DNA of 64,000 nt from Dehalococcoidia bacterium (GTDB lineage Bacteria > Chloroflexota > Dehalococcoidia > Lucifugimonadales > UBA3495), in contig CBDBGS010000008.1 of assembly GCA_965205385.1 (NCBI GenBank), positions 745,752 through 809,751 on the forward strand, given 5' to 3'. Shown one piece after another: positions 10,914 through 61,201 of this stretch. A model generated the notes under the pieces. That model saw nothing but the letters and a program-made list of their open reading frames with translations. It ran no database searches and was not told the origin of the DNA. The translations under genes and the position numbers were made by a program. Numbering within the stretch: position 1 is the first letter of the stretch; every line of letters starts with the position of its first letter.

Positions 10914-11033
10914 CTCCCGGCGGTGACCTATTTTCCCACTCCGTCGCCAGAGCAGTATCGTCGGCGCTGGGGCGTTTCACTTCCGTGTTCGAGATGGGAA
11001 CGGGTGGGGCCACCTCGCTCAAACCACCAGGAA
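10914..11033 (-). rRNA. rrf: 5S ribosomal RNA (stand-alone, not next to a 23S gene)
   Basis: The minus strand reads CCTGGTGGTTTGAGCGAGGTGGCCCCACCCGTTCCCATCTCGAACACGGAAGTGAAACGCCCCAGCGCCGACGATACTGC...GGGAAAATAGGTCACCGCCGGG. This matches the bacterial 5S consensus blocks (CCCGTTCCCATC.CGAACACGGAAGT, GCGCCGA.G.TACT). The 5-prime and 3-prime ends pair as helix I. The ends are approximate to a few nt. Confidence 0.85.
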
Positions 11034-12423: not shown

Positions 12424-13632
12424 TTGGCTTTTCCAGGCCCATTAAGGAGATTCGCTGTGGATTTCACGTTTAGCCCCGAAGACGATTCCTTCAGGCAGGA
12501 TGTCCGCCAGTTCATTCGCCGGGAGCTTCCCGCCGATTGGGAAGGCGGCGGCCGCTACCCGGAGGAAGACGACTGGGACCTAACGGTGCAGATCCGGAAG
12601 AAGATGGCTGACCGGGGCTGGCTGACGATGCATTGGCCCGAGGAATACGGCGGACAGGCGGCCTCTCAGGTCCGCTCCGCCATATTCAGCGAGGAACTGA
12701 CCTACAACCGGACGCCGGGCAGGGACATATTCGGTGTGCGGATGCTTGGCCCCACTTTGATGATCCACGGCTCGGAGGAACAGAAACAGGCCCATCTGCC
12801 GCCGGTGGCCAGGGGAGAGATCCAATGGTGCCAGGGTTACAGCGAGCCCGGCTCGGGGTCCGACCTCGCCTCCCTCAGCACCCGCGCCATTAAAGACGGC
12901 GATGACCTGGTGATCAACGGCAGCAAGATTTGGACCAGCATGGCCCACCACGCCGACTGGATAATGCTGCTGGCCCGCACGGACCCGGACGCCCCCAAGC
13001 ACAGGGGAATCAGCTTCGTCCTTGTGGATATGAAGAGTCCTGGGATTCAGGTGAGGCCCATCATCAACATGGCCAACCGCCACGAATTCAACCAGGTGAT
13101 TTTCGACAACGTCAGAGTGCCGGTGAGGAACATAGTTGGAGAGGAGAACCGGGGTTGGTACGTGGCCGTGACGTTGCTGGACTTTGAGCGTTCCGGAATA
13201 GACTACTCGGCTACCGGGCGCCGGCTGTTGGATGAGACGCTGGAGTATGCCACTGAGACGACCCGCAACGGCAAGCCATTGTCCGAGACCGGCTGGGTCC
13301 GGAACGCGTTGGCCGACCGGTACATCGAATGCGAAGTTGCCCGGCTCATGGCCTACAACGTGGCCTACATGCAGGGGCAAGGCCTGGTGCCCAACAAAGA
13401 GGCATCCATGAGCAAGGTCTTCGGAAGCGAGACCGTGCAGCGGATCACCAAGACCAGCTTGGACATCCTTGGCATGTACGGTTTCCTTGGGCGGGATGAG
13501 AAATGGGCGCCCCTGAAGGGAAGGATCCAGGAAAACTGGATGAGCGCCTTCTCCGGGACCATCGCCGCCGGGACCTCCGAGGTCCAGCGGAACATCATCG
13601 CCTCTCGGGGGTTGGGACTTCCCCGCGGGTAA
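12424..13632 (+). CDS. acyl-CoA dehydrogenase family protein
   Basis: 402 aa with canonical ACAD architecture and motifs (YSEPGSGSD, INGSKIWTS, C-terminal GTSEVQRNIIA). A GTG at 12457 (VDFTFSPEDD) is an alternative start. Confidence 0.85.
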   Translation: MAFPGPLRRFAVDFTFSPEDDSFRQDVRQFIRRELPADWEGGGRYPEEDDWDLTVQIRKKMADRGWLTMHWPEEYGGQAASQVRSAIFSEELTYNRTPGRDIFGVRMLGPTLMIHGSEEQKQAHLPPVARGEIQWCQGYSEPGSGSDLASLSTRAIKDGDDLVINGSKIWTSMAHHADWIMLLARTDPDAPKHRGISFVLVDMKSPGIQVRPIINMANRHEFNQVIFDNVRVPVRNIVGEENRGWYVAVTLLDFERSGIDYSATGRRLLDETLEYATETTRNGKPLSETGWVRNALADRYIECEVARLMAYNVAYMQGQGLVPNKEASMSKVFGSETVQRITKTSLDILGMYGFLGRDEKWAPLKGRIQENWMSAFSGTIAAGTSEVQRNIIASRGLGLPRG

Positions 13633-13665: not shown

Positions 13666-14031
13666 TTAGGCCGCTAGGGCCTGCACCGCGTCCTGGTCCA
13701 TCTGGCACTCTGCTTCCCGGCAGCGGCGCATGATCCGGAAGATGGTCCGCACAGTCACCGAGAAACGCTCCGCCGCTTCTTCCGCCGTTAGCCCCTCTGA
13801 CTGGATCGTGTTCCACACCCTGAAGTCTTTCGCCAGGCGCCTTTGCTGTTGGAACCAGATGGGGTCATCGAACCTGCACTGAGGCAGCGGGCAGGTGAGG
13901 CAAGACGGGGATATCTCGCAACCCGTGTCGTAGTAATGGTAAAACTCCGGGACCGTATCGACTATCGCCGCAGTTGCCGTTGCTCTAACCATGACCAAAC
14001 TCCCAAACATGTGTTCTAATGCTGGGAGCAA
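13666..14031 (-). CDS. hypothetical Cys-rich protein with a C-terminal HTH-like segment
   Basis: 121 aa. It has a cysteine cluster (CEISPSCLTCPLPQC) followed by LTAEEAAERFSVTVRTIFRIMRR. The start is ambiguous (TTG 14031, ATG 14010 or 13992). Confidence 0.4.
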   Translation of the reverse strand: MLPALEHMFGSLVMVRATATAAIVDTVPEFYHYYDTGCEISPSCLTCPLPQCRFDDPIWFQQQRRLAKDFRVWNTIQSEGLTAEEAAERFSVTVRTIFRIMRRCREAECQMDQDAVQALAA

Positions 14032-14145: not shown

Positions 14146-14475
14146 TCAGGATTCGAGTTGTGGCCGTGCGGCCTTTCCCAGGATCAGGCCATTGTCCAGT
14201 TCGATCCTCGCCCGCAGGTTGGTGAACAACAGGAACCGCCGGGAGTCTATGTACATGTTGGACGTGTGGTTGGCGAGGTCGGCGGCGATCAGAAGTTCCA
14301 CTCCGTCCTGATGGACCGGCACGTATTCCGTGGTGTCCCGCCGGCCTATGTGAGTATCGACCGATACTTCAACAATCGACCCGGATCAAGAAGAGTAGCA
14401 GAGTAGGTCTACAGCGGCCCTGCCACCCTTCTTCTGGATGTGGACAACCGCCTTTTCTCCCAGATTTAATTCCAT
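14146..14475 (-). CDS. candidate selenoprotein, HesB/IscA-like (in-frame TGA at codon 30)
   Basis: ATG at 14475 follows GAGGTG at 5-nt spacing. The frame reads MELNLGEKAVVHIQKKGGRAAVDLLCYSS-TGA-SGSIVEV... and stays open for 79 more codons to the TGA at 14146-14148. The internal TGA is at 14386-14388. The SS-U-SG context aligns with the GGCSG cysteine of IscA/HesB. The gene lies 10 nt downstream of the yqeK-like gene in the same operon. It is absent from the ORF track because the TGA splits it. Confidence 0.6.
14354..14367 (-). promoter_or_regulatory. SECIS-like hairpin downstream of the in-frame UGA
   Basis: The RNA reads GUAUC-GGUC-GAUAC, a 5-bp stem with a GGUC apical loop. The loop starts 26 nt after the U of UGA. 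A possible lower CCGG/CCGG stem flanks it. Confidence 0.45.
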
Positions 14476-14485
14476 GCCAGCACCT

Positions 14486-15133
14486 CTATGCGGTCCCGCT
14501 TGTGGTTTTGAGAGGCTCTTCCTGGACCTGTGTCAGAAGGTAGTTTCGCGTTTCAACCGTCACCGGATGGATGAACTCTCCCCGGTCGAGCCTTGGTGAC
14601 CTGATCTCCCGCGTCAGGAACTCCAGGATTGCCCTGTCCAGGTCTTCCTTGGCCATTTCCCGAAGTTGTGAGATGAAGGGGTAACGGTGTTGCTTGTTGG
14701 GGTCGAGTTTGTCTGCCAGAAACACGACCTTCCCCAGCGTGTCCTGGGTTGGGTGGCTGGTGGTGTGCCAGTATACGGCCTGGAGAAGGGAGGCATCATC
14801 CACGCCGTCGCTTTGCCGCAACAGCTCCGAGCCAACCGGTCCGTGCAACATGACGGGGACCTGCTGTTCGACCAGTCCAATGGGAACGCCCAACTCGGGC
14901 GCGAGGCGCAACTGCTCCTTCCCAGGCATGGCCCTGGCTACGTCATGGGCGAGCATTCCAACGGCGGCGCGCTCTTCGTCGAGACCGTGGCAATGGGCAA
15001 GCTCCCTGGCGATTTCGACTACCCTGTAAATGTGGGCCTGAAGCCCATCAGGCAGCCGGTCGACGCGCCGTTGGATGTGGCGCGTGTCCTGGTCCATTCC
15101 CTTGCCGCGGGAAATTTCCGGTTGAGTCGACAT
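14486..15133 (-). CDS. HD-domain phosphohydrolase, YqeK-like (bis(5-nucleosyl)-tetraphosphatase type)
   Basis: 215 aa with an HD motif (LAHDVARA). Conserved H residues lie in HIYRVVEIARELA and YWHTT, and FLADKLDP is typical of YqeK. Confidence 0.65.
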   Translation of the reverse strand: MSTQPEISRGKGMDQDTRHIQRRVDRLPDGLQAHIYRVVEIARELAHCHGLDEERAAVGMLAHDVARAMPGKEQLRLAPELGVPIGLVEQQVPVMLHGPVGSELLRQSDGVDDASLLQAVYWHTTSHPTQDTLGKVVFLADKLDPNKQHRYPFISQLREMAKEDLDRAILEFLTREIRSPRLDRGEFIHPVTVETRNYLLTQVQEEPLKTTSGTA

Positions 15134-15138
15134 GGCGG

Positions 15139-15486
15139 TTATCCTAGGGCTCCCAGTGGTCGTCCGCCCAGCAGGTGCATGTGCAAATGTTCAATTCCCT
15201 GACCGGAGTCGGGACCCTGGTTTAGGGCCAGCCGGTACCCGCTCAACGTGACGCCTTCTCTCCGGGCCATCTCCTCGGCCACCACGAACAGGTGTCCCAT
15301 GACCGGAATCTGACCGGGACCGATGTAGGCCAGGGAGGGAAGGTGCATGTTGGGGATAATCAGCAAGTGGACCTGGGCCGTTGGATTGATGTCGCGGACC
15401 ACGTAAACCTGGTCGTCGCGGTAGATGGGGGACTCGTGGGCCGAGTCCCGGGCCATGGCGCAGAACACGCAACCGCCTGTGCTCAT
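15139..15486 (-). CDS. HIT (histidine triad) family protein
   Basis: 115 aa with the histidine triad HLHMHLLGG and an N-terminal CVFC motif. Confidence 0.85.
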   Translation of the reverse strand: MSTGGCVFCAMARDSAHESPIYRDDQVYVVRDINPTAQVHLLIIPNMHLPSLAYIGPGQIPVMGHLFVVAEEMARREGVTLSGYRLALNQGPDSGQGIEHLHMHLLGGRPLGALG

Positions 15487-16625
15487 TTGGCAAATGCCTC
15501 CAGACGCCCAAGGGCAAGGTCCTTGTGAAAGTTGGAATCACCGTAGCTGAGTTGCTGGACTTTGGCCCGGCGGGTGTAGAGTTGCAAGTCGTGTTCCTTG
15601 GTGAAACCGATGGCCCCATGACACTGGTGGGACCGGGCGCACACCCTGTCGTAAGCCTCGCTTACCCACGCCTTGGCCACCGAGACCTCGCGCTGCGCGT
15701 CCACCCCCTCCGATATCTTCCAGGCCGCTTGATAGGCTACAGTTCGGCTGCCCTCTACGTCAGTGGCCATTTCGGAGCATGCGTGTTGGACCGCTTGGAA
15801 ACTGCCAACCGGCCGGCCGAATTGCGTCCGTTGTTTGACGTATTCGACGGTCATGTCCAGGATAGCTTCAGAGCCGCCCAGCATCTCCATGCACTTTCCG
15901 GCTATGGCCCGCTGCAGCGTCCGCTCCACCACCGGCCAACCTCCGTCTACCTGGCCTAGAACGGCGTCGGGACCTACACTCACACCTTCCAGCCTCACCT
16001 CGCACTGGTGGTCCGCGGCGATGGTGTTCAACGGCTGAACACTGACCCCACTGGAATCCGTCGGCACCAGAAACAGAGTGATCCCCCGTGAAGGGTCTTC
16101 CCCGGTGGAAGTGCGCGCCACGACCACCATCAGGTCTGCGGCCTGGGCGTCAGGAACGAATAACTTCGTACCATCTAGCACGAACCCATCACCCTCTGGC
16201 GCGGCGGCAGTCTCGATTCCCCACGGCTCGTACGTGGCCGAAGGTTCGGTCAGGGCCATCGTCATGAGCAGTTGCCCGCCGCACACCCTGTTTATCAATT
16301 CCTTCTTTTGTTCTTCTGTTCCGGCGTCGAGGACTGGCAGACCGCCCAGGACAACAGTTGAAAACAAGGGGCCGGGAAGGAGCGCCCGCCCCGTCTCTTC
16401 CAGCAGGACGGAGAGATCCATAAAGTCCCCGCCCGTGCCGCCGAGTTGTTCTGCGAAGACTACTCCCGTCCAGCCCAACTCCACGATCTGACGCCAAAGA
16501 TCATCGCTGTAGCCTCGGGGGTCTTCCTCAAGCTCGCGCACCAAGGTCAGTGGGCATTCCTGTGCCAAAAACTCCTGAGCGCTGCTCTTGAGCATTTGCT
16601 GGACTTCGCTAAGTCCCAGGTCCAT
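15483..16625 (-). CDS. acyl-CoA dehydrogenase family protein
   Basis: 380 aa with ACAD architecture. It has a 4-nt overlap with the downstream HIT gene. Confidence 0.85.
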   Translation of the reverse strand: MDLGLSEVQQMLKSSAQEFLAQECPLTLVRELEEDPRGYSDDLWRQIVELGWTGVVFAEQLGGTGGDFMDLSVLLEETGRALLPGPLFSTVVLGGLPVLDAGTEEQKKELINRVCGGQLLMTMALTEPSATYEPWGIETAAAPEGDGFVLDGTKLFVPDAQAADLMVVVARTSTGEDPSRGITLFLVPTDSSGVSVQPLNTIAADHQCEVRLEGVSVGPDAVLGQVDGGWPVVERTLQRAIAGKCMEMLGGSEAILDMTVEYVKQRTQFGRPVGSFQAVQHACSEMATDVEGSRTVAYQAAWKISEGVDAQREVSVAKAWVSEAYDRVCARSHQCHGAIGFTKEHDLQLYTRRAKVQQLSYGDSNFHKDLALGRLEAFAK

Positions 16626-16666: not shown

Positions 16667-17038
16667 TTAGCCGAAGCTCGCGGTTCTAAGACTGCCGGGG
16701 ATCGGAACCAATCGTTCGTTGTAAGGGTCGACGGCCAATAATGCGTTTTCCAGGGCCGTGACTCCGAGCAGTGGCGTAGTACCCTCCGGCGCGACTATCG
16801 TGAGAGCGAACACCTCTTTTTCCTCGAACCTAATCCTCAGATAGCCCACGGTGTATTCGACCTTGCTTTCGTCCGCGAGTACGAACTCCCGAGTCTCGGG
16901 CGACATCAGGGTGAGACCGGCGATCAAGTCCTCCGGGACCATTGTATAGACGGCTCCGGTATCCACCATGGCTTCGGTATGCGCGAAGTGGCTACTTGAG
17001 AGGTCTCCTATTTCTATTTGTACGGTAAACGTGCCCAC
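16667..17038 (-). CDS. retropepsin-like (clan AA) aspartic protease domain protein
   Basis: It has the VDTGA active-site motif (EAMVDTGAVYTMV). The track ORF (to 17209) overlaps the aminotransferase 3-prime end. A GTG at 17038 gives a non-overlapping ~123-aa product. Confidence 0.5.
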   Translation of the reverse strand: MGTFTVQIEIGDLSSSHFAHTEAMVDTGAVYTMVPEDLIAGLTLMSPETREFVLADESKVEYTVGYLRIRFEEKEVFALTIVAPEGTTPLLGVTALENALLAVDPYNERLVPIPGSLRTASFG

Positions 17039-17072
17039 TATGAACCTACATCCCGGTTGGAACCGCGTTCCC

Positions 17073-18239
17073 TCATAAGCTGCGAACGAACTGGTCCAAC
17101 TGGGATATCGCCTTTTGGATGTTCTCCTGGGAGTTGGCGTAGGAGAGTCTGACATAGCCCTCGCCGTATTCGCCGAAGGCCGCTCCGGATAGCAATGCCA
17201 CTCCGGCATCCGCCATGGCCCGTGCCTCGAACTCGGCGCTGGTCAGCCCCGTTTCCTTGATGCTTGGGAAGGCGTAAAATGCGCCCTCCGGTTCTGGGCA
17301 GTTGATCCCGGGTATGCTCCGTAGTCCGTCGGTAATCAGCCGCCGGCGCTGGCCAAACTCCGCCGCCATCGCCTGCACCTCATCTTGAGGTCCGTCCAAT
17401 GCGGCGATAGCTGCCCTTTGAGTGAACGAAGCCGCGCACGACACGCTGTTTACCGCCAAACGCACTACGTGGGGCACCAGTTCATCGGGCATGATGCCGT
17501 AGCCTAGCCTCCACCCAGTCATCGCGTAGCTCTTGGAGAACCCGTCGAGAATTATCGTGCGCTCCGCCATTCCGGGAAAGGCGGAGATTGTATGGTGTTC
17601 TCCCGTATACAGAATGTCCTTATAAATCTCGTCCGCCAACACATATAGATTAGGACGTTCCTTCACCAAGTCAGCGATCCGCTCCAGTTCTTCGCGGGTG
17701 AATACCGAACCGCAGGGGTTGTTGGGCGAATTTATGATGATGAGCCGGGTGTTGTCAGTTATCTTGCCGGCAAGGTCGTCCAGGTCCGGATGGTAACCTC
17801 GTTCCTCGATTAGCTGCATTGGCACGGCGGTTGCGCCTGAGAATTTCACCATCGACTCGTAGATCGGAAAGCCGGGGTTGGGGTAGATGATCTCGACGCC
17901 GGGTTCTCCCAAGGCCAGCATCACGTAAAACATGATGGGTTTGGCTCCGGGAGTCACTACGACCTGCGACGGCGCGGTGTCGACGCCCCGGACTTCCCTG
18001 CTATTCCTGGCGATGGCCTCGCGAAGCTCCGGTAGGCCGGGAGTGGGGCCGTAGTGGGTATACCCTTGGCGCAGGGCCTCAACACTAGCCTCCACGATGT
18101 GTTGGGGGGTGTCGAAGTCCGGTTCTCCGATTTCCATATGGATGATCTCCCGGCCTTGTGCCTCCAACTCCCTGGCTTTGGCCAGCACCTCGAAGGCGGT
18201 TTCGGTGCCCAGGTCGTTCATTCTCGCGGCTACTGTCAC
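17073..18239 (-). CDS. class I/II PLP-dependent aminotransferase (aspartate aminotransferase-like)
   Basis: 388 aa with the PLP-lysine motif SKSYAMTGWRLGY and NPCG / NPGFP blocks. Confidence 0.85.
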   Translation of the reverse strand: MTVAARMNDLGTETAFEVLAKARELEAQGREIIHMEIGEPDFDTPQHIVEASVEALRQGYTHYGPTPGLPELREAIARNSREVRGVDTAPSQVVVTPGAKPIMFYVMLALGEPGVEIIYPNPGFPIYESMVKFSGATAVPMQLIEERGYHPDLDDLAGKITDNTRLIIINSPNNPCGSVFTREELERIADLVKERPNLYVLADEIYKDILYTGEHHTISAFPGMAERTIILDGFSKSYAMTGWRLGYGIMPDELVPHVVRLAVNSVSCAASFTQRAAIAALDGPQDEVQAMAAEFGQRRRLITDGLRSIPGINCPEPEGAFYAFPSIKETGLTSAEFEARAMADAGVALLSGAAFGEYGEGYVRLSYANSQENIQKAISQLDQFVRSL

Positions 18240-51313: not shown

Positions 51314-51583
51314 AGGCAGCGATTATATATGAACCCACGTCGCGACCGCCATTTGGGACGCTCCATCACAGGGTCTATTAATTGTCGGTCCATTCGCCCA
51401 TTCTCCCCCTTTCGAAAAAGGGGATTAAGGGGGATTTCTCCCCTGCTCGAGTCTGCGTTCGCGAAAATCGAGAATAATTGGCCCTGTTCCATTTCACTAA
51501 TCTTAAAGACGAGTCTCGTTCTAGGCGCACAGTGACCTCGGCGGTCCTGACCGGTGCGGTACTGATTGGCGGTACTTACGATT

Positions 51584-51610
51584 AAAAGGCCCCGTCTCCA
51601 TCAGCGGGGG
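51584..51610 (-). terminator. candidate Rho-independent terminator
   Basis: The minus strand reads GCCCCG-(10 nt)-CGGGGC followed by CTTTTAAT. It lies just after the stop of the 89-aa ORF. Confidence 0.4.
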
Positions 51611-51613
51611 CAA

Positions 51614-51883
51614 TCACACACCGCGGTACCAGCCGCCGGTGACATGGTTTTTCAAGACCATCAACTGCGACCCATCCGCAAGGGCTAACTTGTACTGAGT
51701 CTTGACCACCTGCTCACCCCCAACCATCCGTTGCTTGTCATCGTGGGCAGATTCTACCCTTTCCACCGATATCCAAATGCCGTTCAATCTCAAATGCTTG
51801 GGAGTTCCCCCGCCATCCTCCCTGACGCGTACCGGTATCCAAACCATCTTCGGTCCGCCGCCTGAATCCTGCGAGCCGTCCAT
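51614..51883 (-). CDS. small hypothetical protein
   Basis: 89-aa ORF. An internal MVWIPVRV start is possible. No motif recognised. Confidence 0.35.
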   Translation of the reverse strand: MDGSQDSGGGPKMVWIPVRVREDGGGTPKHLRLNGIWISVERVESAHDDKQRMVGGEQVVKTQYKLALADGSQLMVLKNHVTGGWYRGV

Positions 51884-52048
51884 CTGCCCTCCGATTGACC
51901 CTTTTACCCTTTGACGCTGGTATCGACGGCAAACTCTAGAGACTGGTCACACGACAAGGCAAGCCGGCTTTGTCATCCTTGCGGACCGGATGCGTTTCTG
52001 TTGTACTGGCCAGGACGTTTCCTCCCAGACCAAAATCCATAAGGAGAC

Positions 52049-60597: not shown

Positions 60598-61201
60598 CCG
60601 CTGGGAATATCAGTAGTCGGCCGTGCCCGCTCACCCTGAACGCGGCTAAGTGAAGCCGCAGGCGTAACGCGGCGGAGTCGAAGGGCCATCCTCAATGAAG
60701 CATGTCCTTCGTCTACGCCGCGTTACGGTCGGGATGATCACGGTCGGGATGAGCGAGGTAGCCTCCTTGATCGGCAATTGGCCATGAAAACCTAGAGACC
60801 CTGCCCTCTCACCAGGGTCTTTCAATTCTCCGAGACCCCCGCCATTCGCCCTTCCTCAGAATCCAAAACCTTGGCAATCGTCCTAAACCATAAGCGTGAG
60901 GTCTCCCGCCCCGCGCCTCCCAACTGACATTTCCCCCTTCCCATTCCGCGTTGCACCTCTCTACCATCCATATCACTCAACATCTCCGAACACTAGCCTG
61001 GACCCGAATCCCATCCCACAAGGAGGCGCATGTCCCAAAATGTCTCAGTTTGACTCAAAACAAAAAACTCCGGCCTCTCCGCCAGGCGCCGAACAGCCGG
61101 TTCCCCATGCCCGCCGCCGTAGCCGAAGCCCCACTCGCCCCCGTCCGACCCCAGGGTCTCCATAACGCCCTCACAATCAAGACCCGCCAGGAGAAATATC
61201 T

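Follow-up and report, generated by a model that had tools for sequence, protein, structure and literature searches.

In Escherichia coli fdhF, the TGA at codon 140 is followed within the coding region by a SECIS hairpin, GCA-GGUC-UGC, whose GGUC apical loop, correctly noted in the first-pass annotation of the locus described here, is placed at +21 from the U. At the protein level, a 2026 review of the prokaryotic selenoproteome treats CC/Se (NF041239) and HesB-like (TIGR01911) proteins as separate known families and gives the CC/Se motif as CxxU (PMC13188914). The main text of the two sources cited by that review for the CC/Se family, the GOS paper (PMC2398784) and Peng et al. 2016 (PMC5029168), contains no mention of it, and no mention of NF041239 beyond PMC13188914 was found in the literature searched. 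Members of the CC/Se family (NF041239, 'Moor_selen_rel'; PF28096) are about 100 aa long and functionally uncharacterised. The HesB-like selenoprotein (TIGR01911; PMC1794560) is a small protein of the IscA/HesB fold in which Sec stands for the first conserved cysteine, within the motif UxGP, and the SECIS lies directly 3'. The Chloroflexi were scored as Sec users in 2006 (PMC1794560), and in BSepDB two Dehalococcoidia MAGs, with 49 and 46 genes, are among the ten selenoprotein-richest bacteria (PMC13326102, Table 2).

The stretch analysed here, referred to as the window, comprises 64,000 nt of contig CBDBGS010000008.1 (assembly GCA_965205385.1) from a Dehalococcoidia bacterium. It contains a candidate selenoprotein gene that resembles each of these systems in part and departs from each in defined ways.

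Architecture of the candidate gene

The candidate gene occupies positions 14475-14146 of the minus strand and comprises 109 codons before its stop, including a predicted Sec codon at position 30. Its ATG start codon (14475-14473, minus strand) is preceded, across a 5-nt spacer, by a Shine-Dalgarno-like GAGGTG (14481..14486, minus strand) that overlaps the last base of the stop codon of the upstream yqeK gene. The N-terminal coding part (codons 1-29, MELNLGEKAVVHIQKKGGRAAVDLLCYSS; 14389..14475, minus strand), which is conserved in frame in all homologues, leads to an in-frame UGA at codon 30 (14386..14388, minus strand), the predicted Sec codon, after which 79 sense codons (codons 31-109, SGSIVEVSVDTHIGRR...PQLES; 14149..14385, minus strand) extend to a genuine TGA stop (14146..14148, minus strand). 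The read-through product is MELNLGEKAVVHIQKKGGRAAVDLLCYSS-U-SGSIVEVSVDTHIGRR...PQLES, and its Sec-site peptide reads ...DLLCYSS-U-SGSIVEVSVDTHIGR. This layout, from the ribosome-binding site and start codon through the TGA after 29 sense codons to the end of the 79-codon continuation, had been proposed in the first-pass annotation and holds at every point, as does the antisense competitor named there, a TTG-started 82-aa ORF (14158-14406); a 56-aa GTG ORF, also on the opposite strand, is the only other competing frame.

TGA serves as the ordinary stop of 17 of the approximately 60 ORFs in the window, the selenoprotein gene itself included, and is therefore not reassigned genome-wide. Two scans across the window revealed no further convincing TGA-interrupted gene. 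Downstream of the TGA at codon 30, the first start codon in the window protein lies 22 codons on, within the fold described below.

Conservation of the UGA across homologues

Forty-nine homologous loci were compared, drawn from 11 genomic loci, 35 metagenomic contigs and several contigs reached through individual proteins. The genomic loci all belong to Dehalococcoidia, SAR202 or Chloroflexota MAGs, and nearly all of the 49 derive from Dehalococcoidia/SAR202 genomes or marine metagenomes. Codon 30 is TGA in 47 of them, CGA (Arg) in two and a Cys codon in none. The TGA, the reading frame on both of its sides and the hairpin downstream recur together in 47/49 loci, down to 44% protein identity, a recurrence that is, on the aligned loci, far beyond chance.

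The substitution pattern is that of a coding sequence upstream of the UGA (entropy of 0.77/0.52/1.47 at the three codon positions), with corresponding values of 0.75/0.43/1.15 downstream, where the C-terminal motifs EVSVDT, IGRR and QDGVELL are kept among homologues. In nearly all 49 loci the upstream start is preceded, at the corresponding position, by a GAGG/GGAGG-type Shine-Dalgarno motif, and no start or Shine-Dalgarno motif is conserved 3' of the UGA. Homologues with a true stop or frameshift and no conservation beyond it, which the earlier annotation had named as counter-evidence, were not seen among these loci: both flanks remain in frame.

The CGA codon replaces the Sec TGA in two distinct marine lineages, represented by proteins P0001 and P0011 (Arg-form loci L003, positions 514-819, L004, L019, positions 533-838, and L020). 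Sec-to-Arg requires a one-base change and is an unusual replacement. The hairpin is intact in both lineages, and their stems differ, one carrying GUA/GAU and the other GUG/GAC.

A SECIS-like hairpin follows the UGA

Immediately downstream of the UGA, the transcript can form a SECIS-like hairpin (14352..14370, minus strand), GUAUC-GGUC-GAUAC, with a 6-bp stem that includes an extra A-U pair. On the minus strand, the stem is built from 14368-14363 and 14358-14353 and closed by the GGUC tetraloop at 14362-14359, whose first base lies 26 nt after the U of UGA, exactly as had been read from the sequence beforehand. A possible extra G-C pair (14370/14352, minus strand) across a one-base 5' bulge is absent in some sequences.

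Across 40 distinct sequences, all six stem pairs show standard pairing in every one of the 240 cells. The evidence for covariation comes from two of these pairs. The first, pair 36-45, links a Val and an Asp codon through their third positions and never mismatches, 24 sequences having A-U and 16 G-C; the second, pair 33-48, joins Glu and Thr third positions and is G-C in 34, A-U in four and G-U in two. The switch between A-U and G-C recurs across distinct clades; the two Arg lineages, for instance, differ in this way. None of 500 shuffles reached the covariation observed, and sliding the partner strand lowered pairing to 27-57%. Within the loop, G40 and U41 are invariant, and the flanking synonymous third positions are 95% conserved. 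The hairpin is encoded over the strongly conserved peptide EVSVDT, and part of its conservation is therefore protein-derived.

Two loci (L018 and L046) carry the tetraloop CGUG in place of GGUC, reached through synonymous changes of Ser and Val codons. The central G-U of these loops is unchanged, which fits a role of these two bases as putative functional loop contacts.

An additional lower stem, GCCG...CGGC, noticed by eye, was considered and rejected: it shifts register between sequences and is not predicted by RNAalifold. The possible extra G-C pair (G31-C49 in alignment columns) is broken in sequences with A at column 49. Rfam gave no match to a SECIS family, either at gathering thresholds or at E<=10 on the region; the sole Rfam match at E<=10 was a sub-threshold chance hit to mir-761 overlapping the UGA region. 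Bacterial SECIS elements of this fdhF-like type are not represented by any Rfam model.

Compared with the fdhF element, the hairpin shares its location in the coding region 3' of the UGA, its GGUC tetraloop and its one-base 5' bulge. It differs in the position of the loop (+26 here versus +21 in fdhF), in an upper stem of 6 bp with another sequence, and in that a conserved lower stem was not found.

Public gene models are truncated at the UGA

The effect of the in-frame UGA on public gene models is pervasive. In a first protein search, nine of ten matches start exactly at 'MEVSVDT', directly past the UGA site, and in a profile search approximately 98 of 103 matches are post-UGA fragments of 58-72 aa. 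An exhaustive search of 1.84 billion representatives returned 93 matches, nearly all beginning at profile position 35-37, together with a few 29-residue peptides that end exactly ahead of the UGA. Public gene calls systematically cut the gene short or misread its UGA as Trp.

The Trp misreading concerns three proteins (P0012-P0014) that appear 'full-length' with Trp at the Sec site and have TGA in their DNA, evidently a gene-calling artefact of genetic code 4. The misread loci, L017 (928-1236) and L018 (296-613), derive from JGI/ENA calls, and P0012 is in addition fused to its upstream gene, giving 191 aa.

Relation to known selenoprotein families

When NCBIfam was searched with the window protein, one relevant model matched: NF041239 ('CC/Se motif family (seleno)protein'), with 24.7 bits where the cutoff is 40. 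The match is colinear and full-length (residues 1-88 against profile positions 1-87 of 91), relatives score 30.5-33.4 bits, and the distant Cys form P0190, which carries GCCGG, is a true member at 70.8 bits. In the copy of Pfam-A searched, which lacked PF28096, the window protein had no match; many of its homologues carry precomputed matches to PF28096 (CC_Se_fam).

Distant full-length homologues carry a conserved Cys in the Sec column, namely the Cys of VGCGK forms and the second C of GCCGG in P0190. The alignment to Cys-containing proteins that the first-pass annotation had suggested as a check therefore comes out in its favour. The Cys forms (P0117, P0122, P0128, P0142, P0161, P0169, P0184 and P0190) are all distant, at 22-32% identity, and none occurs among close relatives. 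As aligned, a predicted Sec falling on a conserved Cys is the Sec/Cys signature.

The surroundings of the Sec residue set the clade apart from its curated neighbours. All 38 distinct Sec-clade proteins have SS-U, SN-U or ST-U, and with Ser, Asn or Thr before Sec, the CC/CU dipeptide from which the CC/Se family takes its name is absent; the Cys-Cys/Cys-Sec dipeptide is here a criterion inferred from the family name and P0190 rather than a curated one. A nearby Cys stands at -4 in 19 of the 38 and at -3 in five, while 14 have none nearby. The CxxU motif is thus satisfied by the five proteins with Cys at -3 (for example L011-L014, C-S-S-U) and not by the window protein, whose Cys is at -4. Ten of the 38 contain no Cys at all, and only three have one within the last 15 residues; by contrast, the Cys forms of the CC/Se family have a Cys in the C-terminal region, which the Sec forms of the SAR202 clade lack. 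The group, confined to SAR202/Dehalococcoidia, also has invariant motifs of its own, EVSVDTHIGRR and QDGVELL. With its similar length, colinearity and shared Sec/Cys column, and a function as uncharacterised as that of the CC/Se family, the predicted protein and its SAR202/Dehalococcoidia relatives are, by sequence, a sister branch of that family lying below its score cutoff.

The HesB-like selenoproteins form a different family. Likeness is seen in small size, in the IscA/HesB fold, in Sec for the first conserved cysteine and in a SECIS directly 3' of it. The motif differs, being UxGP in that family and U-S/A-G-x in the present clade (U-S-G-S in the window protein), and neither the window protein nor nine relatives matched TIGR01911 at E<=1.

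The predicted fold is that of an A-type iron-sulfur carrier

Structure prediction used P0001, an Arg-form homologue sharing 49% identity with the window protein, and a 38-row alignment. The AlphaFold2 model (pLDDT 88.3, pTM 0.78) shows the predicted product as a single domain that extends across the UGA site and adopts the A-type iron-sulfur carrier fold (IscA/SufA/HesB). Its N-terminal part supplies the first strand, first helix and second strand of the IscA fold, at pLDDT 94-95. Foldseek against the PDB placed SufA (2d2a) at the top together with IscA (1r94, 1x0g, 1s98), HI1723 (2apn) and AQ_1857 (1nwb); TM scores were close to 0.6 for SufA and IscA, at a probability of 1.0, and 0.41-0.45 for 2apn and 1nwb, and the probabilities of all these matches spanned 0.87-1.0. 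An unrelated integrative model, 9a4q_B, ranked seventh (TM 0.43), and nothing else was comparable.

The cluster ligands of the A-type carrier IscA of E. coli are Cys35, Cys99 and Cys101. In the model, the Sec position lies in the loop joining strand 2 to strand 3, at the place of the first cluster-ligand cysteine (IscA Cys35). Alignment by hhalign to E. coli IscA, using a sequence 100% identical to the annotated iscA, likewise sets Sec on Cys35 with a weak score (8% probability, against this single IscA sequence), and P0001 reaches PF01521 at E=0.05, below threshold. The Foldseek matches to SufA and IscA make the earlier label 'HesB/IscA-like' right at the level of the fold, and the placement of Sec at the first IscA cysteine stands with it; the part of that label that does not hold is membership in the HesB-like selenoprotein family.

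An alternative to be weighed is a canonical A-type Fe-S carrier with the function of IscA/SufA/ErpA and Sec as one ligand, to which the fold and the Cys35 position lend support, along with the shared N-terminal pattern and weak matches of relatives to TIGR00049 and NF038090. It is nevertheless unlikely. Of the three ligand positions just the first survives, as Sec, and the C-terminal CxC is absent in a clade where Cys-free proteins and proteins without a C-terminal Cys are as frequent as described above; in addition, similarity to PF01521 is not significant, no significant Pfam or NCBIfam match to the carriers was obtained, and isc/suf genes are not found nearby. The missing C-terminal ligand cysteines and the third of homologues without a nearby Cys make both a standard Fe-S carrier and a CxxU thiol-selenol oxidoreductase unlikely.

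Genomic context

The candidate gene is the last in a block on the minus strand. Directly upstream lies yqeK (14486..15133, minus strand), encoding an HD-domain bis(5'-nucleosyl)-tetraphosphatase identified by TIGR00488 (105.7 bits against a cutoff of 70.15), whose TAG stop (14488-14486) ends 10 nt ahead of the selenoprotein start. It is preceded by a HIT-family (HinT-like) gene (15139..15486, minus strand) and by a pimD-like acyl-CoA dehydrogenase gene (pimeloyl-CoA dehydrogenase small subunit; 15483-16625, minus strand). The gene context of acyl-CoA dehydrogenase, HIT and YqeK described in the first-pass annotation is thereby confirmed, with YqeK supported above its model cutoff. This ACAD-HIT-YqeK-selenoprotein block is retained in most genomic and metagenomic loci, with variable content downstream. 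In most loci yqeK is directly upstream of the homologue, and the YqeK-less loci L007, L044 and L054, from three clades, have no common alternative context. The carriers are all related Chloroflexota, so inherited synteny and functional linkage are inseparable here. Gene context suggests that in most SAR202/Dehalococcoidia the predicted selenoprotein would be expressed together with YqeK and HIT.

Several further features of the surroundings were recorded. A pimC-like acyl-CoA dehydrogenase gene (pimeloyl-CoA dehydrogenase large subunit; 12424-13632, plus strand) lies on the other side, so that pimC-like and pimD-like genes on opposite strands flank the HIT-YqeK-selenoprotein block, a synteny seen clade-wide. 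Downstream, a 121-aa protein (13666-14031, minus strand) is kept in most related loci at variable distance and has no NCBIfam match; a Cys-rich motif (C..SPSCLTCPLPQC) precedes a helix-turn-helix-like segment, RTIFRIMRRC, in this protein, which could be a small regulator that senses redox state. A clan AA aspartic protease ORF (16667-17209, minus strand; TIGR03698 at cutoff), patchy among related loci, overlaps as listed the 3' end of an aminotransferase gene (17073-18239, minus strand) by 137 nt, and its start probably lies further downstream than listed. A lone 5S rRNA gene (10915-11031, minus strand; Rfam, 84.5 bits) is present, no 23S or 16S gene was detected in the 64 kb, and the rRNA genes appear unlinked here. 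Two intervals, 51314-52048 (735 nt) and 60598-61201 (604 nt), contain no convincing ORF and no Rfam match at gathering thresholds.

Neither the window nor 418 kb of related loci (~1% of a genome) yielded selA, selB, selD or tRNA-Sec in searches by tblastn with E. coli SelA, SelB and SelD and by ARAGORN, a result expected by chance for such a fraction.

Discussion

Taken as a whole, 14475-14146 is very probably one gene for a 109-residue predicted selenoprotein whose UGA-30 is read as Sec. Three of the features by which a selenoprotein gene is recognised are present: an in-frame UGA conserved with coding constraint on both of its sides, a hairpin 3' of it with a 6-bp stem, a GGUC loop at +26 and two covarying pairs, and homologues, distant ones only, with Cys in the Sec column. 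Translation would initiate at ATG 14475 and would probably be coupled to that of the upstream yqeK. At UGA-30, the hairpin at 14370-14352 would recruit SelB with Sec-tRNA(Sec), in the manner of the E. coli fdhF SECIS, and selenocysteine would be inserted in place of termination.

The role of the product is approached more tentatively. A single-selenol ligand or carrier is the likeliest role, at somewhat less than even odds. One possibility is a homodimer whose two Sec residues face a metal, a cluster or a chalcogen; another is a transient Se-S bond between the selenol and a partner protein. A more far-reaching proposal, and a doubtful one, is that the clade represents a separate, obligately Sec-dependent IscA-fold branch in which a lone selenol performs an undescribed chemistry tied to the YqeK Ap4A hydrolase and the HIT nucleotide hydrolase; its substrate might, for example, be a metal or a nucleotide adduct of selenium or sulfur, in place of Fe-S transfer or thiol-disulfide exchange. 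The basis for this proposal is that close relatives have no Cys equivalent and that Arg is the sole replacement seen.

If the UGA were decoded without Sec, by a suppressor tRNA or by hairpin-stimulated near-cognate readthrough that inserts Trp, Cys or Arg, the same gene would yield a selenium-free full-length protein. Such a reading would accommodate the Sec machinery not being among the genes found in the window and 418 kb, the retention of the hairpin in the two Arg (CGA) lineages and the absence of a close Cys form. It is quite improbable nonetheless: the loop, bulge and spacing of the hairpin are those of a SelB-binding SECIS, the residue in the same column of distant homologues is Cys, the usual counterpart of Sec, and 47/49 loci retain TGA although a sense codon would be the simpler way to Trp or Arg. 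Moreover, the closest curated family is a known selenoprotein family (PMC13188914), and the lineage is rich in selenoproteins (PMC13326102). Barely credible is the reading of the TGA as a true stop, in a decayed gene or between two ORFs (29 aa and ~58-72 aa) with the hairpin a by-product of EVSVDT, to which gene callers lend support by annotating the downstream fragment only and by the GTG that follows the UGA in many homologues and is callable as a start, but against which stand the identical TGA codon in 47 loci with flanks in frame and third-position-dominated substitutions, the first start of the window protein only 22 codons on and inside the fold, the conserved Shine-Dalgarno motif before the upstream start only, a confident model that requires residues 1-28 (strand 1, helix 1 and strand 2), and synonymous-site covariation and invariant loop third positions that protein constraint alone cannot give.

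With UGA-30 read as Sec, what is apparently new is the assignment of the IscA/SufA fold to the obscure CC/Se family, as well as the loss of all partner cysteines in its SAR202/Dehalococcoidia branch, the Sec-to-Arg variants and a very clean fdhF-like SECIS. Nothing known about selenocysteine decoding is overturned, and the main practical value lies in annotation and in the SECIS as a seed: being highly conserved, it could seed a search model for SECIS elements of the Chloroflexota. NCBI's own family model misses the SAR202 clade by score, and together with the post-UGA fragments and the false Trp calls, this means that the selenoproteomes of SAR202 are undercounted. The predicted proteins define a Sec-only branch in an abundant deep-ocean lineage.
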